A stretch of 64,000 nt of DNA, taken from NCBI RefSeq assembly GCF_963921235.1, contig NC_086097.1, positions 58,716,001 to 58,780,000 on the forward strand, in the 5' to 3' direction. Positions 40,026 to 52,828 of the stretch are shown here, piece after piece (position 1 is the stretch's first letter; every line of letters starts with the position of its first letter). The notes under the pieces are model-generated. The model was not told the origin of the DNA, did no database searches, and was given only the letters and a program-made list of their open reading frames with translations. The position numbers and the translations under genes were made by a program. The stretch comes from Mobula hypostoma (Eukaryota).

Positions 40026-40749
40026 TTCAAACTCAGCCCCCTCCTTTCAAATTAATGTGCTGACTCTTCCTGGGCCAGGTTCTAACCTACTTAAGATTCC
40101 CTAAGCTTTTGGCACTAGGGAAATCCAGCATGTTTGTATTCTACTACTGGCAAAGATTCTTTCACTGTTCAAGATTGCTTCTAGCTGTATTTCTCCCCAC
40201 AACTTGTTTTCTCTGTGATCTCCCTTCCCTGACTATGTTTCCTCTGATCACAATACTCTCAACCACAAAATCTCCCTCTCTTCTTAAACCTCCCATCAAC
40301 TGATTCAGTTTGATCATCAGTAGCCTCCCAATCCCCATACATTCTTTCCCTTCATTCATTGTTCTTTCAGTTGTTACCTTGTGCTGCCCTCCTGCAGCCA
40401 ATAGATCAAACTTAGACACTCACTTTTAGAGTAACCCTGAGGAAATGTTTAATAATTGGTATACTTACATTGTACATATTCAAATACAGTAAGCACTTTG
40501 TAGTCACAGGTAAAATTGGACTTTAATAAAGCTGACGGCTTCTCGCCTGTCAGAGGATATTTCCACCCATTTTAACACCACCCCCCAATTCTTACATTAA
40601 ATCTGTAGTTGACATCAGTGGCATTCATTGGGAATAGGGATGCTTGGAGTCATGTCTGAACTAATGGTCTGTATCATATTAGTTTCTAAAAGTTTCTAAT
40701 TACCCTTGGCTGCAAAATGAGCAAGTACAGTTGTAGTAGCACCACAGTC

Positions 40750-41228
40750 CAGGTAGTTATGGTGCCAAGGCAGGGCATGAAACAATGCAGCCTCACTTTA
40801 CAGCTGGTTGTGGTGCCAAGGCAGGGCATGAAACAATGCAGCCTCACTTTACAGCTGGTTGTGGTGCCAAGGCAGGGCATGAAACAATGCAGCCTCACTT
40901 TACAGCTGGTTGTGGTGCCAAGGCAGGGCATGAAACAATGCAGCCTCACTTTACAGGTAGTATTGGTGCCAAGGCAGGGCATGAAACAATGCAGCCTCAC
41001 TTTACAGCTGGTTGTGGTGCCAAGGCAGGGCATGAAACAATGCAGCCTCACTTTACAGGTAGTTTTGGTGCCAAGGCAGGGCATGAAACAATGCAGCCTC
41101 ACTTTACAGCTGGTTGTGGTGCCAAGGCAGGGCATGAAACAATGCAGCCTCACTTTACAGGTAGTTTTGGTGCCAAGGCAGGGCATGAAACAATGCAGCC
41201 TCACTTTACAGCTGGTTGTGGTGCCAAG
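40750..41228. repeat. 51-bp minisatellite, ~9.4 units (resumes at 43471-43542)
   Basis: Unit ggtgccaaggcagggcatgaaacaatgcagcctcactttacag(ctggttgt or gtagt.tt), starting every 51 bp from 40761. Confidence 0.97.
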
Positions 41229-42710
41229 TCAGCCTCTCACTGCTACGGGCGGAAGTTCCCACTTGCTTCGAAAAGGCGACAATTATGCAAGTGCCTAAGA
41301 AGAATAATGTGAGCTGCCTTAATGACTACCGCCTAGTATCACTCACATTGACAGTGATGAAATGCTTTGAGAGGTTGGTCATGACTAAAATGAACTCCTC
41401 CCTCAGCAAGGACCTGAGCCTATTGCAATTTGCCTATCGCCACAATAGGTCAACAGCAGACGCAATCTCAATGGCTCTCCACACGGCTTTAGACCACCTA
41501 GGCAACACAAACACCTACGTCAGGATGCTGTTCATCGACTAAAGCTCAGCATTTAATACCATAATTCCCACAATCCTGATTGAGAAGTTGCAGAACCTGG
41601 GCCTCTGTACCTCCCTCTGCAATTGGATTCTCGACTTCCTAACCGGAAGACCACAGTCTGTGTGGATTGGAGATAACACATCCTCCTTGTTGACAATCAA
41701 CACTGACGCACCACAGGGGTGTGTGCTTAGCCCACTGTTCTACTCTCTGTATACACATGATTGTGTGGCTAGGCATAGCTCAAATACCATCTACAAATTT
41801 GCTGACGATACAACCACTGTTGGTAGAATCTCAGGCGGTGACAACAGGGCGTTCAGGAGTAAGATATGCTAACTAGTGGAATGGCGCCGCAGCAAAAACC
41901 TGGCACTTAACGTCAGTTAAACAAAAGAGCTGATTGTGGACTTCAGCAAGGGTAAGACGAAGGAACACATACCAATCCTCATAGAGGGATCAGAAGCGGA
42001 GAGAGTGAGCAGTTTCAAGTTCCTCGGTGTCAGGATCTCCGAGGATATAACCTGGTCCCAACATATCGATGCAGTCATAAAGAAGGCAAGACAGTGGCTA
42101 TACTCTACTACGAGTTTGAAGAGATTTGGCGTGTCAACAAATACACTCAAAAACTTCTATAGTTGTACCATGGAGAGCATTCTGACAGGCTGCATCACTG
42201 TCTGGTATGGAGAGGCTACTGCACAGGACCGAAAGAAGCTGCAGAAGGTTGTAAATCTATTCAGCTCCATCTTGGGTACTAGCCTACAAAGTACCCGGGA
42301 CATCTTTAGGGAGCGGTGTCTCAGAAAGGCAGCGTCCATTATTGAGGACCTCCAGCACCCAGGGCATGCCCTTTTCTCACTGTTACCATCAGGTAGGAGG
42401 TACAGAAGCCTGAAGGCACACACTCAGCGATTCAGGAACAGCTTCTTCCCCTCTGCCATCTGATTCTAGAATGGACATTGAAGCTTTGGACCCTACTTCA
42501 CTTCTTTTAATATACAGTATTTCTGTTTTTGCACATTTTTTAATCTATTCAATATACTTAATCGATTTACTTGTTTATTTATTATTATGTTTTATTTTAT
42601 TTAATTTTTTTCTCTCTCTGCTAGATTATGTATTGCATTGAACTGCTGCTGCTAAGTTAACAAATTTCACATCACATGTCGGTGATAATAAACCTGATTC
42701 TCATTCTGAT
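41229..42710 (+). mobile_element. 5'-truncated Rex1/Babar LINE inserted in the minisatellite
   Basis: [53 protein letters not shown]; tail aataaacctgattctcattctgat. Confidence 0.93.
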
Positions 42711-43470: not shown

Positions 43471-43542
43471 CAAGGCAGGGCATGCAACAATGCAGCCTCA
43501 CATTACAGCTGGTTATGGTGCCAAGGCAGGGCATGAAACAAT
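43471..43542. repeat. Distal remnant of the 51-bp minisatellite
   Basis: caaggcagggcatgcaacaatgcagcctcacattacagctggttatggtgccaaggcagggcatgaaacaat. Confidence 0.9.
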
Positions 43543-44959: not shown

Positions 44960-45512
44960 TCACAAAGAAGAGAAAATCTGCAGATGCTGGAAATCTGAGC
45001 AACACACTCAAAATTTTGTAGAACACAGCAGGCCAGGCCGCATCTATGGAAAGGAGTATAGTCGATGTTGCGGGCCAAGACCCTTCACCAGGACTGGAAA
45101 AAAAGACGAGCAGTCAGAGTAAGAAAGTGGGAGGTGGGAGGGGGGAGGGGAGGAGAGGTGAGGTGAAGCGCTGGGATGTTGATTATTGAAAGAAATACAG
45201 GGCTGGAGAAGGGGGGATCTGATAGCAGAGGACAGAAGGCTATGGAAGAAAGAAAAGGGGAGGAGGACCAGATGGAGGTGATGGACAGGTAAGGAGATAA
45301 GGTGAGAGAGGGAAATAGGAATGGGGAATGGTGAAGAGGGGGGCACTACCGGAAGTTTGAGAAATCAATGTTTATGCCATCAGGTTGGAGGCTACCTAGA
45401 TGGAATTAAAGGTATTGCTCCTCCACCCTGAGTGTGGCCTCATTGCAACAGTAGAGGAGGCCATAGACTGACATGTTGGAATGGGAATTAAAATGGATGG
45501 CCACTGGGAAAC
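44960..45512 (-). mobile_element. Penelope-like element 3' fragment with a mutated hammerhead-like motif
   Basis: Minus strand cagtcCTGGTGAagggtcttggcccGCAAcatcgact at ~45060-45096. Homologous to 27700-28135 and 51480-52010. Confidence 0.85.
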
Positions 45513-45517
45513 CCCAT

Positions 45518-48500
45518 TGTGGTAAACCATGTATATAGGTTGTAACTAAGTTACCTGTTGGACATGCCTGGATATGCCCCTCTGCTGACTGCTCCTGTGG
45601 CTCCTCCCACAGACCCCTGAATAAAGGTCATTGTGTCACTGCTCCTCCCTCATTCCAGGACAGATATTCAGCATGGACGTTGGTCCATTTTACTGTTAAT
45701 AAAAGCCTTTCAGTATTTACTCTACTTCCAGTCCTTTGGAGTAATTGATAGTGCATCAATTTTATTAACAGTAATTTTAAAGCATGGAACACGTCCTGAG
45801 ACCCGACAAGCTAGACCCTGATCCGCAAATACCTGAAGCCAGAAATGCTTTCGAACTCTGGTTGGCCTGCTTCGAATCATACCTGGAGGAGATTGAAGTG
45901 ACCAAGTCTGCCGTGAAGCACAGAGTTCTCCTCTCTAGGATCAGTCCACGGGTCTACTCAATGATTCGAGACCAGCTGAGCTACGATGGCGCGATGAGCG
46001 CCCTCAGAAGACAATACCTACGGCCGGTAAGCCAGAGGGTCGCCATGGCTTCCAGGTCGCATACAACAGACATCCGGGGGGGGGTTGTGTAGCAACGCCA
46101 GTGGTTCAGGGCACAGAATATCGAGACTTTATGTTACTGGTCATGCCTGAACTGTGTGCCCCTGTGCTATTGGGGCTCGACTTCCAGAGCCACCTGAGGA
46201 GCATGACAATGGAGTATGATGGGCCCCTCCCACCAATTACTGTCGGAAATCCTCAGTTTTGTAGGGATACATCACATACCCCGCTACTGACCGCACACAC
46301 ACACCAACCCACACGTCCAACCCAACACCATGCCAACAGCCGCACTACCGATGCTACTTGTGGCCTCTCCACCCTCAAGATCCCTCCCCCACTGCTGTTC
46401 GCCAACCTGACCCCTGACTGTAAATCTGTGGCCACTAAAAGCAGGAGGTACAGCGCGGGGGACAGAGCTTTCATTAAGTCGGAGGTGCATCGGCTGCTCA
46501 GGGAGGGGGTCATTGAGGTAAGCACAAGTCCTTGGAGGGCCCAGGTGGTCGTTCTTCAGAACGGGGAGAAGAATAGGATGGTTGTGGACTATAGCCAGAC
46601 CATCAATAGGTTCACGCAGCTCGACGCGTACCCTCTACCCCGCATCGTGGATATGGTCAATCAGATAGCACAGTGCAAGGTGTACTCGACCATAGACCTA
46701 AAATCTGCTTACCATCAGCTCCCCATTCGCCGGGAGGACCACCCTTACACCGCCTTCAAGGTGGACGGTGGGCTGTATCAATTCCTGTGCATCCCCTTCG
46801 GTGTCACGAATAGTGTATCTGTCTTCCAGAGGGAAATGGACCGGATGGTGGACCAGTGCCAACTGAAGGCCACGTTCCCATATCTGGATAACATCACCAT
46901 CTGCGGTCACGACTGGCAGGATCACGACAATAACCACCAAAAATTTTTCCAAGCGGCCAAAGCTTTCAATCTCATCTATAACAAGGACAAGTGTGTTTTC
47001 AGAACCACCCGACTTGCTATCCTTGGGTGTGTTGTGGAGAAGGGAGTCATTGGCCCGACCCCGACCGTATGCACCCCCTGTTGGAACTCCCTCTTCCCAA
47101 CACCCTCAGAGCCCTCAAAAGGTGCCTGGGCTTCTTTTCATATTACGCCCAATGGGTCCCTAACTACGCAGACAAGGCCCGCCCCCTGGTCAAGTCCATC
47201 ACATTTCCCCTCTCAGCCGAGGCCCGTGCAGCCTTCAGCTGCAGTAAAGGGGACATTGCCAAAGCAGCAATGCATGCGGTGGATGAGGTCATTCCCTTCC
47301 AAGTAGAGAGTGACGCCTCCGACTTCGCGCTGGCTGCTACCCTCCACCAGGCTGGAAGACCAGTGGCGTTCTTCTCCCGTACCCTTCAAGGCCCTGAACT
47401 TCGGCACTCCGCGGTGGAGAAAGAGGCCCAGGCCATAGTGGAAGCTATTAGGCACTGGAGGCACTATCTCGCCGGCAAAAATTTCACCCTGCTGACTGAC
47501 CAGCAGTCAGTCGCATTCATGTTTAGTAACCAACAGCGGAGCAAAATCAAAAATGATAAAATTCTGAGGTGGAGAATCGAACTCTCCACTTACAACTATG
47601 GCATCATGTACAGGCCTGGGAAGCTCAATGAGCCCTCCGATGCCCTATCCTGGGGAGTGTGCGCCAGCGCGCAGATCGACCAACTATACGCCCTACATGC
47701 AGATCTTTGCCACCCGGGAGTCATCCGGCTTTTCCACTTCGTGAAAGCCCGGAACCTGCCTTACTCCCTTGAGGAGATCAGGATGATGACCAGCGACTGC
47801 CAAGTCTGCGCAGAGTGCAAACCGCACTTCTACTGACCCGAAAAGGCACCACTCATCAAGGTCACCCGCCCCTTTGAGCGACTGAGTGTTGACTTTAAGG
47901 GCCCCCTTCCCTCCACCGACTGCAATGTGTACTTTCTTAACGTTATCGACGAGTACTCGCGGTTCCCCTTCACCATCCCCTGCCCCGACACCACTACCAC
48001 GTCAGTTATAAAAGCCCTGCCCAAGCTCTTCACTCTGTTCCGATACCCATGCTATATCCACAGTGACAGAGGGTCCTCGTTTATGAGTGACGAGCTGCGC
48101 CAATACCTGCTGGCTAGGGGAATTGCAACTAGTAGGACCACGAGCTATAATCCCCCGGGGAACAGACAGGTGGAGAGGGAGAATGGCACGGTGTGGAAAG
48201 CCACACTCTTAGCCCTCAGGTCAAAGGGACTTCCAGTCTCTCACTGGCAGGAGGTCCTTCCCGAGGCACTCCACTCCATCCGCTCCCTGTTACGTACGTC
48301 CACCAATGCCAGCCCTCATGAGCGACGTTTTTCTTTTCCCAGGAAGTCGACCACCGGGACCACCCTATCAACTTGGCTGACGTCCCCAGGGCCAGTGCTG
48401 CTCCGGAAACATGCGAGGAGAAATAAATACTCCCCGATGGTCGAGAGGGTTCACTTACTTCATGCGAACCCTCAGTATGCCTACGTGGTTTTACCTGATG

Positions 48501-49125
48501 GGCGGGAGGACACGGTCTCCATCCGCGACCTGGCGCCCGCAGGAGCTCCGGGCCCCTACCCTGAACACTCCGTAGTGACTATTGACCCCGTACCCACCAA
48601 TGTATGTACCCATGAGACACCACACACTCCAAGCCCTACACAGACACCACACGACACTCCCATACCGGGCGCAACGCACACGCATGAGGGATTACCGACG
48701 CCTAACGTGCTGACACCTGAAGTCAGGCTGGAGCCAGCACAACCGCCATCGCCTGTGCAATCACCGCCGGTGCTACGTAGATCACAGCGACGGACTCGAC
48801 CGCCTGATAGACTTGACCTGTAAATATACTTGTTTTAAATATTGTCAGTCACTTCACCCCGCGGAACTCTCTTTTTTTAAAAGGAGGGGTGAATGTGGTA
48901 AACCATGTATGTAGGTTGTAACCAGGTTACCTGTCTGGACATGCCCCTCTGGTGACTGCTCCTGTGGCTTCTCACACAGACCCTTGAATAAAGGCGATTG
49001 TGTCACTGCTCCTCCCTCGTTCCAGGACAGATATTCAGCATGGACGTGGGTCCATTTTACTGTTAATAAAAGCCTTTCACTATTTGCTCTACTTCCAGTC
49101 TTTTGGAGTAATTGATAGTGCATCA
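45518..49125 (+). mobile_element. Gypsy/Ty3 LTR retrotransposon, 3608 bp: gag/protease partly deleted, RT-RNase H-integrase nearly intact
   Basis: LTRs 45518-45758 and 48894-49125 (TG...CA, ~14 substitutions plus indels). TSD CCCAT on both sides. PPT aaaaggaggggtgaa at 48879-48893. gag MEHVLRPDKL; RT SPW..RMVVDY..DLKSAYHQ..YLDN; RNase H ESDASD..EKEA..TDQ; integrase H..HPG..CQVC, VDFKGP, HSDRG, VERENG. Confidence 0.97.
46101..48823 (+). pseudogene. pol: Gypsy pol (protease tail, RT, RNase H, integrase) with one frameshift (~47058) and one in-frame stop (47834-47836)
   Basis: ORFs 46101..47306, 46991..47836 and 47927..48823 join into one pol. Confidence 0.92.
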
Positions 49126-49541
49126 CCCATTCAAATGTCCAGTGGTGGAGCAGATACCTCCCTATGTGACCTCCAGTACGTCCTTAATTTTTGCACTGCA
49201 GTGCACAAGCACGAAGTCCAGAACACAGTGCTGTAAGTCCATGGATCAATATTAAATTCCCACCCATTATCATTCTAACAATAGTTTGTTTGCTTATTTC
49301 TGACTTCATGAAATTGAAATCTCAGTTTAAAACAGTTCCGCTTGTGGACCATTTGTCTAATCTATACAGTTACACATTCTTTTACCCTTTCTCTTTATCT
49401 TTTATCTACCTCTAAAATCCCCACTGTCTGCAGTGAACATTCATTATATCCCCTCCCATGATTAATGTGATTGTATTATCATTTAAGGCTTCCTCATTCC
49501 TGTTCCTATTTTTATTTGCTTGCCTTTGTTCAAATACTTGG

Positions 49542-51477: not shown

Positions 51478-52828
51478 ATCATGAAAAAATCTGCAGATAC
51501 TGGAAATCCAAAGGTACACACACAGAATGCCGGAGGAACTCAAAAGGTCAGACAAGATCTAAGGAAAAGAGTAAACAGTTGACATTTTGGGCCGTGGCCC
51601 TTCTTCAGACCTGAGAGGGAAGTGGGGAAATGCCTGAATTAAATGGTTAGAGGAGGGGAAAGAGACTAGCTGGAAGCTGAGAGGTGAAGCCAGGTGGGTG
51701 AGAAAGGTCAAGAACTGGTGAAGAAGGAATTGGATAGGAGAGGCAAAAGGGAAGGAGGATGGGATCCAGGAGGAAGTAATAGATAAATAAGAAGAAGTAA
51801 AAGGTTAGTGTGGGAACAAATGATAGGTGGGGGAATATTTTCACCAGATGGAGAAATCAATATCCATACTATCAGGTTGGAGGGTACCCAGACAGAATAT
51901 AAGGTGTTGCTCCTCCACCCTGAGGGTGGCCTCATCTTGGTACAAGAGGAGGCCATGGATTGACATACCAGAATGGGAATGGGAATTGGAATTAAAATGT
52001 TTGGCCACTCGGAATTCCCGCTTGTGGCAGATGGTGTGGAGGTCTTGACCAAGTGGTCCCCCAACTTATGACATGTCTCACCAATGTAGAGGAGACTGCA
52101 TTGGGAGCACTGGACATAATAGATGACCCTACCAGATTCTCAGGTGAAGTGTTGACTCACCTGGAAGGACTGTTTGGAACCTTGAATGGAGGTGAGGGAG
52201 GAGGTGTATAGGCAGGTGTAGCATTTAAGCCGCTTGCAGGGATAAGTGCCTGGAGGGGGATTAGTGGAGAGGGATGAATGGACAAGGGAATTGTGCAGAG
52301 AGTGATCTCTGCTGAAAGCGGGGGAGGGGGAGGGGGAGGGGGAGGTAAAGATATGTTTAATGGTAGGGCTCCTTTAGAGATAGAGGAAGTTGTGGAGAAT
52401 AATATGTTGGATATGGAGGCTGATGGGGTGAGGTGATAGGTAAGGACAAGAGGAACTCTATCAATGTTAAGGTGACGGGAATATGGGGTAAGTGCTGAAG
52501 TGTGGGAAATGGAGGAGATGCAGGTAAGGGCAGCATCAATATTAAAGGGCACAAAACCCCATTCTTTAAAGAAGGAAGACATTTCTGATGTTCTGGAACA
52601 GAAAGCCGTGACCAAGGTATAGATGCAGTGGAGGCAAAGAAACTGAGAAAAGGGAATAGCATTTTTACAGAAAACAGTTTGGGAAATGGTATAGTCGAGA
52701 TAACTATGGGAATCAGAGTTTTATAAAAGATGTTGGTTGACAATTTATCTCCAGAAATAGAGACAGAGAGACCAAGAAAGGGAAGAGAAGTGTCAGAGAT
52801 GGACCAAGTGAATTTAAGGGTAGAGTGG
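51478..52828 (-). mobile_element. Penelope-like element (RT C-terminus, GIY-YIG, tail with hammerhead-like motif)
   Basis: LKFTWSISDTSLPFLGLSVSISGDKLST, VPLVLTYH, LLYIGET. Minus strand CTGAAGAagggccacggcccAAAAtgtcaactg at ~51577-51608. Confidence 0.9.

Follow-up and report, generated by a model that had tools for sequence, protein, structure and literature searches.

The window analysed here is a 64,000-nucleotide stretch of the Mobula hypostoma genome (contig NC_086097.1), in which positions 45518-49125 hold a defective Gypsy LTR retrotransposon with the order reverse transcriptase (RT), RNase H and integrase (IN), distributed over three separate open frames. Its features, all on the + strand, are as follows.

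45513..45517, +, left target-site duplication CCCAT, repeated at 49126-49130
45518..45758, +, 5' LTR, TG...CA, 241 nt
45620..45625, +, TATA-position hexamer of a predicted promoter, AATAAA here and TATAAA in the sister family
45650..45655, +, Initiator-like TCAKTY, start predicted at 45652, 38 nt upstream of the paired segment
45673..45688, +, 6-bp hairpin, not conserved
45690..45704, +, putative self-primer segment, containing AATAAA at 45698-45703
45705..45708, +, conserved RCCT past the predicted cut between 45704 and 45705, often opening a predicted helix stacked on the primer duplex
45724, +, position matching a poly(A) addition site and predicted R end (weak evidence from one contig of a related organism, run X2, 14 A)
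45759..45759, +, one-base spacer between the CA of the LTR and the primer site
45760..45774, +, primer-binding-site position, no TGG, complementary to 45690-45704
45784..46092, +, gag 5' remnant
45939..47306, +, open frame with reverse transcriptase (RVT_1)
46982..47836, +, open frame in another phase with RNase H, stop at its end
47837..48823, +, integrase core, with no chromodomain or SH3_Tf2-1 after it
48879..48893, +, polypurine tract
48894..49125, +, 3' LTR, 232 nt, with a copy of the segment at 49057-49071
49126..49130, +, right target-site duplication CCCAT, copy of 45513-45517

The TG...CA LTRs, the target duplication, the polypurine tract and the RT-RNase H-IN order place the element among the Ty3/Gypsy LTR retrotransposons, and the best solved-structure match of its RT is the RT of Ty3. 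Fifteen substitutions and one 9-nt indel separate the two LTRs. Two siblings have about 840-990 nt more in the gag-protease region, the gap in the window copy lying near 46030. By RT, its nearest named relatives come from rays and sharks (70-87% identity), with cnidarians and insects next (~60% identity). A search of Rfam with positions 45400-46000 gave no match, no relative was found in IMG/VR, and the Atlas search returned generic Gag clusters only. The element was inserted into a high-copy repeat (45354-45490 and 51708-52139, minus strand), a related copy of which contains a 143-aa frame that appears GIY-YIG endonuclease-like by eye and in which Pfam found nothing. Elsewhere in the window, a tandem array of ~10 copies of a 51-nt unit occupies 40636-41334, with a detached copy at 43471-43542, 2.3 kb away.

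A preliminary description of this element had reported a perfect complement to its own LTR in place of a tRNA primer site, and this could be confirmed. Positions 45760-45774 are the exact reverse complement of LTR positions 45690-45704, with 15 of 15 pairs and no extension on either side; no TGG lies within 32 bases past the LTR end at 45758, and AATAAA is found inside the paired LTR segment at 45698-45703. None of 5000 dinucleotide shuffles of the LTR reached a self-complement of at least 13 nt (maximum 12), and in the window background 13 of 12,734 25-mers reach 15 nt against their own preceding 241 nt. Two accompanying observations are correct as such but carry little weight. The segment is identical in the 3' LTR, yet when 15 of 232 sites differ between two LTRs, an unchanged 15-mer is expected with P=0.37, so that this identity is uninformative and was dropped as support. 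The 6-bp hairpin just upstream is present, but no more than 10 of 30 copies keep all of its pairs, no other part of the LTR varies as much as the one it falls in, and the sister family lacks it; it was accordingly rejected as a component of the system.

The clade is abundant in the genome, with 2630 first-look candidates. Forty matches to the LTR-gag junction were scored, and the best 30 made up the family sample; pairing is complete (15/15) in 16 of these copies and reaches at least 13/15 in all 30, none of which carries a TGG-starting site. Since these copies were picked by their likeness to the query, what they show is a family-wide trait, not selection. A further twenty, more distant loci taken from a gag search belong mostly to one sister family with a different 16-nt arm pair (LTR ...GTACAGCGAATAAAA), in which both arms have changed together. 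Seventeen of the 18 loci with a site in this sister set pair with their own LTR at 13-16 of 16 positions, the remaining one being without the LTR segment, and two further loci were unscored. At one pair position, scorable in 55 of 57 loci, T-A occurs in 40, C-G in 9, T-G wobble in 5 and C-A in 1. The nine C-G copies are probably one subfamily, and hence one event, and the excess of wobble over mismatch would, in these small numbers, fit pairing on the sense RNA.

Other Gypsy elements of the same genome served as controls. The negative control comprised twenty other Gypsy loci from an RNase H search, in which the self-complement is 5-8 nt in all 18 scored rows and a TGG lies 2-7 nt past the LTR in the 15 elements with a resolved LTR end. 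The positive control comprised twenty loci with a Tf2-type SH3 domain, and Chromo plus SH3_Tf2-1 domains were found in all three elements tested. This chromodomain family (L220-L237, e.g., L222 and L237) contains an 11-nt self-complement, the known pattern of Tf1/sushi, with ten clear junctions matching their own LTR at 8-11 of 11 positions, the downstream arm beginning one base past a CA (the CA-N register), and an A-rich TATA-like word ~30-35 nt upstream in the three inspected. The test therefore tells tRNA-primed elements from the known self-priming ones, and the clade of the window element sides with the latter.

Distant animal relatives were collected from metagenomes and genomes. Among 87 loci, 57 were without a gag start and 2 had too little upstream DNA, leaving 28 scorable, in which the longest perfect inverted repeat within 336 nt before gag was determined. 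A repeat of at least 10 nt was present in 24 of the 28 loci against 198 of 2800 shuffles, with lengths of 10-18 nt, and one of at least 13 nt in 20 of 28 against 8 of 2800. The downstream arm starts in the CA-N register in 20 of the 28 loci, and in 12 loci the LTR end was set independently by the 3' LTR. L125 pairs only with one mismatch, and L130, L150 and L160 have no pairing upstream of gag, none of these three possessing a clean LTR pair. Three loci re-inspected outside these counts gave a 14-nt complement (L109), a 12-nt complement (L101) and none (L100). Among the collected contigs, L109, L112, L120, L171 and L173 are ~4 kb long with overlapping ends, which fits one-LTR circles or collapsed repeats, and the seven contigs L171-L177, assigned to bacterial genome bins, carry animal-type retrotransposons and are probably host DNA contamination.

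For comparison of the paired letters, 22 families were picked by eye, three from this genome and 19 others, some of them closely related; the RTs of paired families are 41-61% identical to that of the window element, and named homologs place the clade in arthropods and cnidarians. Their site 12-mers include 20 distinct ones, and no site starts with TGG. Positions 2-12 are paired in 21-22 of the 22 families, and each of positions 4-12 shows two to four kinds of pair, in a table that is partly true by construction, as the arm segments were defined via the repeat itself. As registered, the CA-N register occurs in 22 of 22 families, 20 of which have CAA. The conserved letters are those of the arm end (AA then A) and the following RCCT (R 22/22, C 20/22, C 19/22, T 18/22), together with a G ten bases before the arm end in 21 of 22 families, whose neighbours vary. 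Pairing is thus kept through two-sided changes both within the genome and across distant families, a point on which the preliminary description had made its interpretation depend. The A+T-rich arms and the broken state of the window copy might suggest chance, or an inverted duplication that arose once in a dead element; besides the shuffled LTRs, the retention of pairing with changed letters across such distant families refutes this reading, leaving it a nearly negligible probability.

A host RNA was considered as the primer. Among tRNA genes of four isotypes (Lys, Cys, Thr and Ile), the match to the window site never goes beyond 6 nt, with at most 5 perfectly matching nt in 54 Lys, Cys and Thr genes and 6 nt in three tRNA-Ile genes. 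Half-tRNA priming is known in copia lineages (accessible text of PMC6317226), so that a tRNA half (tRNA-Ile cleaved within its anticodon loop, for instance) or some other small host RNA could be proposed to prime the element, the LTR match being a by-product. The L184-type arm, which has 10 nt in common with the anticodon arm of tRNA-Ile(AAT), would be bound by this tRNA nearly as well as by the LTR (-12.7 vs -13.4 kcal/mol), a match that may be chance or a trace of half-tRNA priming. For the window site, however, the tRNA-Ile duplex amounts to -8.5 against -15.0 kcal/mol for self-pairing, and in 21 of 22 families self-pairing is the more stable of the two. When the genome was searched with a pattern placing the arm upstream of a T-loop, 42 hits were obtained against 40 in the control, a chance-level count, and no tRNA was among the 30 of these 42 hits that were examined. 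Moreover, 20 different sites each match their own LTR, therefore no small set of host RNAs could match them all. Priming by a host RNA is accordingly considered very improbable.

The position of the transcript start determines whether the paired segment lies at the 5' end of the RNA. The three ray-type families contain a TATA-position hexamer 66-73 nt and an Initiator-like word 35-39 nt before the arm, and in 16 of 20 sister-set loci the Initiator-like word (TCAKTY) follows the TATA by 31-32 nt. These promoter motifs may make the primer of the ray-type families internal to the transcript, unlike that of Tf1. No common TATA position was found across the 19 non-ray families, of which 14 have AG at -11/-10, resembling an Initiator. 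As a start site, this AG would give an 11-nt Tf1-like primer, yet the pairing reaches 12-13 nt. The conserved G, or AG at -11/-10, could be either a start site or an enzyme contact.

The LTR of the window family has two AATAAA words, one at the TATA position (45620-45625) and one in the paired segment. The preliminary description had suggested that pairing could also mask the 5' poly(A) signal. In its stronger form, this suggestion would have the duplex serve to hide the signal, in the manner of the HIV-1 poly(A) hairpin, with priming carried out by something else. In 15 of 22 families the paired arm does contain a poly(A)-type hexamer, the pairing partner is present only beside the 5' LTR, and the signal looks functional, given a contig that ends in poly(A) 21 nt after AATAAA, a single contig whose status as RNA is a guess. 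Nevertheless, 7 of the 22 families pair a hexamer-free segment, three of them having a hexamer elsewhere in the loop; the fixed CA-N register is needed for priming and not for masking, and no other primer site is visible. Masking as the purpose of the duplex is hence unlikely. In the window family the duplex would also hide the AATAAA, as a side benefit and not as a general purpose; masking is at most secondary, since no more than 15 of 22 families have the hexamer within the arm.

Given the pairing kept through two-sided changes, the fixed CA-N register and the lack of a tRNA match in a partial test, it is likely that this lineage of compact elements, in which the primer-site position pairs with 12-16 nt of the LTR, primes minus-strand DNA synthesis from its own R region, with a predicted cut between AAA and RCCT; we give this best reading, which is drawn from sequence comparison, a probability of roughly 0.78. 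The primer position of LTR elements defines the DNA end used by integrase, hence a fixed register adjoining the LTR end is what a primer needs. In the proposed course, the R segment would anneal to the primer site within the transcript, and the RNA would be cut between the terminal AAA and RCCT (between 45704 and 45705), probably by the RNase H of the element, as in Tf1. RT would then extend the AAA 3' end through U5, leaving ~20 nt of R (45705 to about 45724) for the first strand transfer.

The predicted leader folds with the duplex (z = -4.2). A helix beginning right at RCCT was not significant in the first test (62/1000 shuffles) and gave 0/100 in a second one, which was chosen after the first and in which the families are non-independent and the L179 row is one base out of register, so that a stacked helix after the predicted cut is only suggestive. 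A "pretzel" third duplex downstream of the site was not enriched (62/200 shuffles).

The primer could alternatively be supplied by the 3' copy of R, from the same or a co-packaged RNA, instead of the 5' end. Pairing of at least 12-13 nt in nearly all families extends past the AG seen at -11/-10 in 14 of 19 non-ray families, and if this AG were the start site, the extra bases would exist only in the 3' copy. Cutting the 3' copy, however, would take from the transcript its poly(A) end and some of the acceptor used in strand transfer. No precedent was found, and the 5' copy is just 55 nt away in a stable fold. We regard a 3' origin of the primer as rather improbable and retain self-priming from the 5' R segment. 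More tentatively, the clade might have evolved tRNA-free priming independently of Tf1/sushi, with one duplex that serves both to excise an internal R primer at the conserved AAA/RCCT junction, just past the poly(A) signal, and to silence this signal at the 5' end only; this fuller scenario is possible but doubtful.

In trees of RT (40 rows), RNase H (27 rows) and integrase (25 rows), which sample one chromovirus lineage and contain no fungal or named references, the clade forms its own branch with SH-aLRT values of 97-100, and a sister relation to the chromoviruses is not rejected (AU p=0.50). Repbase is said to note self-complementary primer sites in some animal Gypsy families. In the literature searched, with Repbase and GyDB entries outside that search, no description of the priming of this clade was found. 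The accessible parts of PMC4600332, PMC5341516, PMC3601003, PMC5445492, PMC6238403 and PMC10680173 do not describe the clade; in the main text of PMC6238403 the words PBS, primer and self do not occur. In the portions of the literature available to us, Gypsy self-priming is tied to Tf1/sushi chromoviruses. If our reading is true, this would be a second, chromodomain-less self-priming clade, meaning that tRNA-free priming arose again or predates the chromoviruses. Two self-priming designs within one genome would allow direct comparison of how RNase H chooses its cut site in an RNA duplex, and LTR finders demanding a tRNA site will under-call such elements in genome annotation.

Several known systems could be compared with the window clade. 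Tf1 uses its first 11 bases for pairing, RNase H cleaving the RNA between bases 11 and 12 (accessible text of PMC7175516), and Tf1/sushi is a chromovirus sublineage with a three-duplex leader (available part of bioRxiv 10.1101/2022.12.06.519325). Tf1 and Tf2 of Schizosaccharomyces pombe, Tj1 and Tf1/sushi have in common with the window clade that they are Gypsy-type, lack a tRNA site and show complementarity between the site and their own R. Unlike Tf1/sushi, the clade has a chromodomain or SH3_Tf2-1 in 0 of 39 full-length homologs and none in the window, its duplex is longer (10-18 nt) and its loop shorter (21-68 nt vs 168-228 nt), its arm ends in AAA followed by RCCT and often holds the poly(A) signal, the duplex downstream of the site is not enriched, and the segment may be transcript-internal. 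The chromodomain elements of the same genome share the CA-N register, but their RT identity to the clade is 25-29%. The tRNA-primed non-chromovirus Gypsy elements of the genome, namely Gmr1-type elements and a TGG-bearing RT-IN lineage, probably Mag-type, belong to the same superfamily and would likewise be expected to lack a chromodomain, but differ in their TGG 2-7 nt past the LTR and their 5-8 nt self-complement; furthermore, Gmr1-type elements have IN before RT, whereas the window element has RT before IN. For the TAR/Houba/Osr-1 lineage of plant Ty1/copia elements, self-priming was predicted from complements of 10 nt or more that begin 0-5 nt past the LTR (accessible text of PMC6317226), which is the same type of evidence as ours in a different superfamily (Copia) and in plants, therefore the trait is not confined to Tf1/sushi. 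Because it has no chromodomain and groups apart from the self-priming chromoviruses of its own genome, the clade is set apart from Tf1/sushi, and judging from these sequence comparisons it most likely works like Tf1/sushi but stands outside the chromoviruses.
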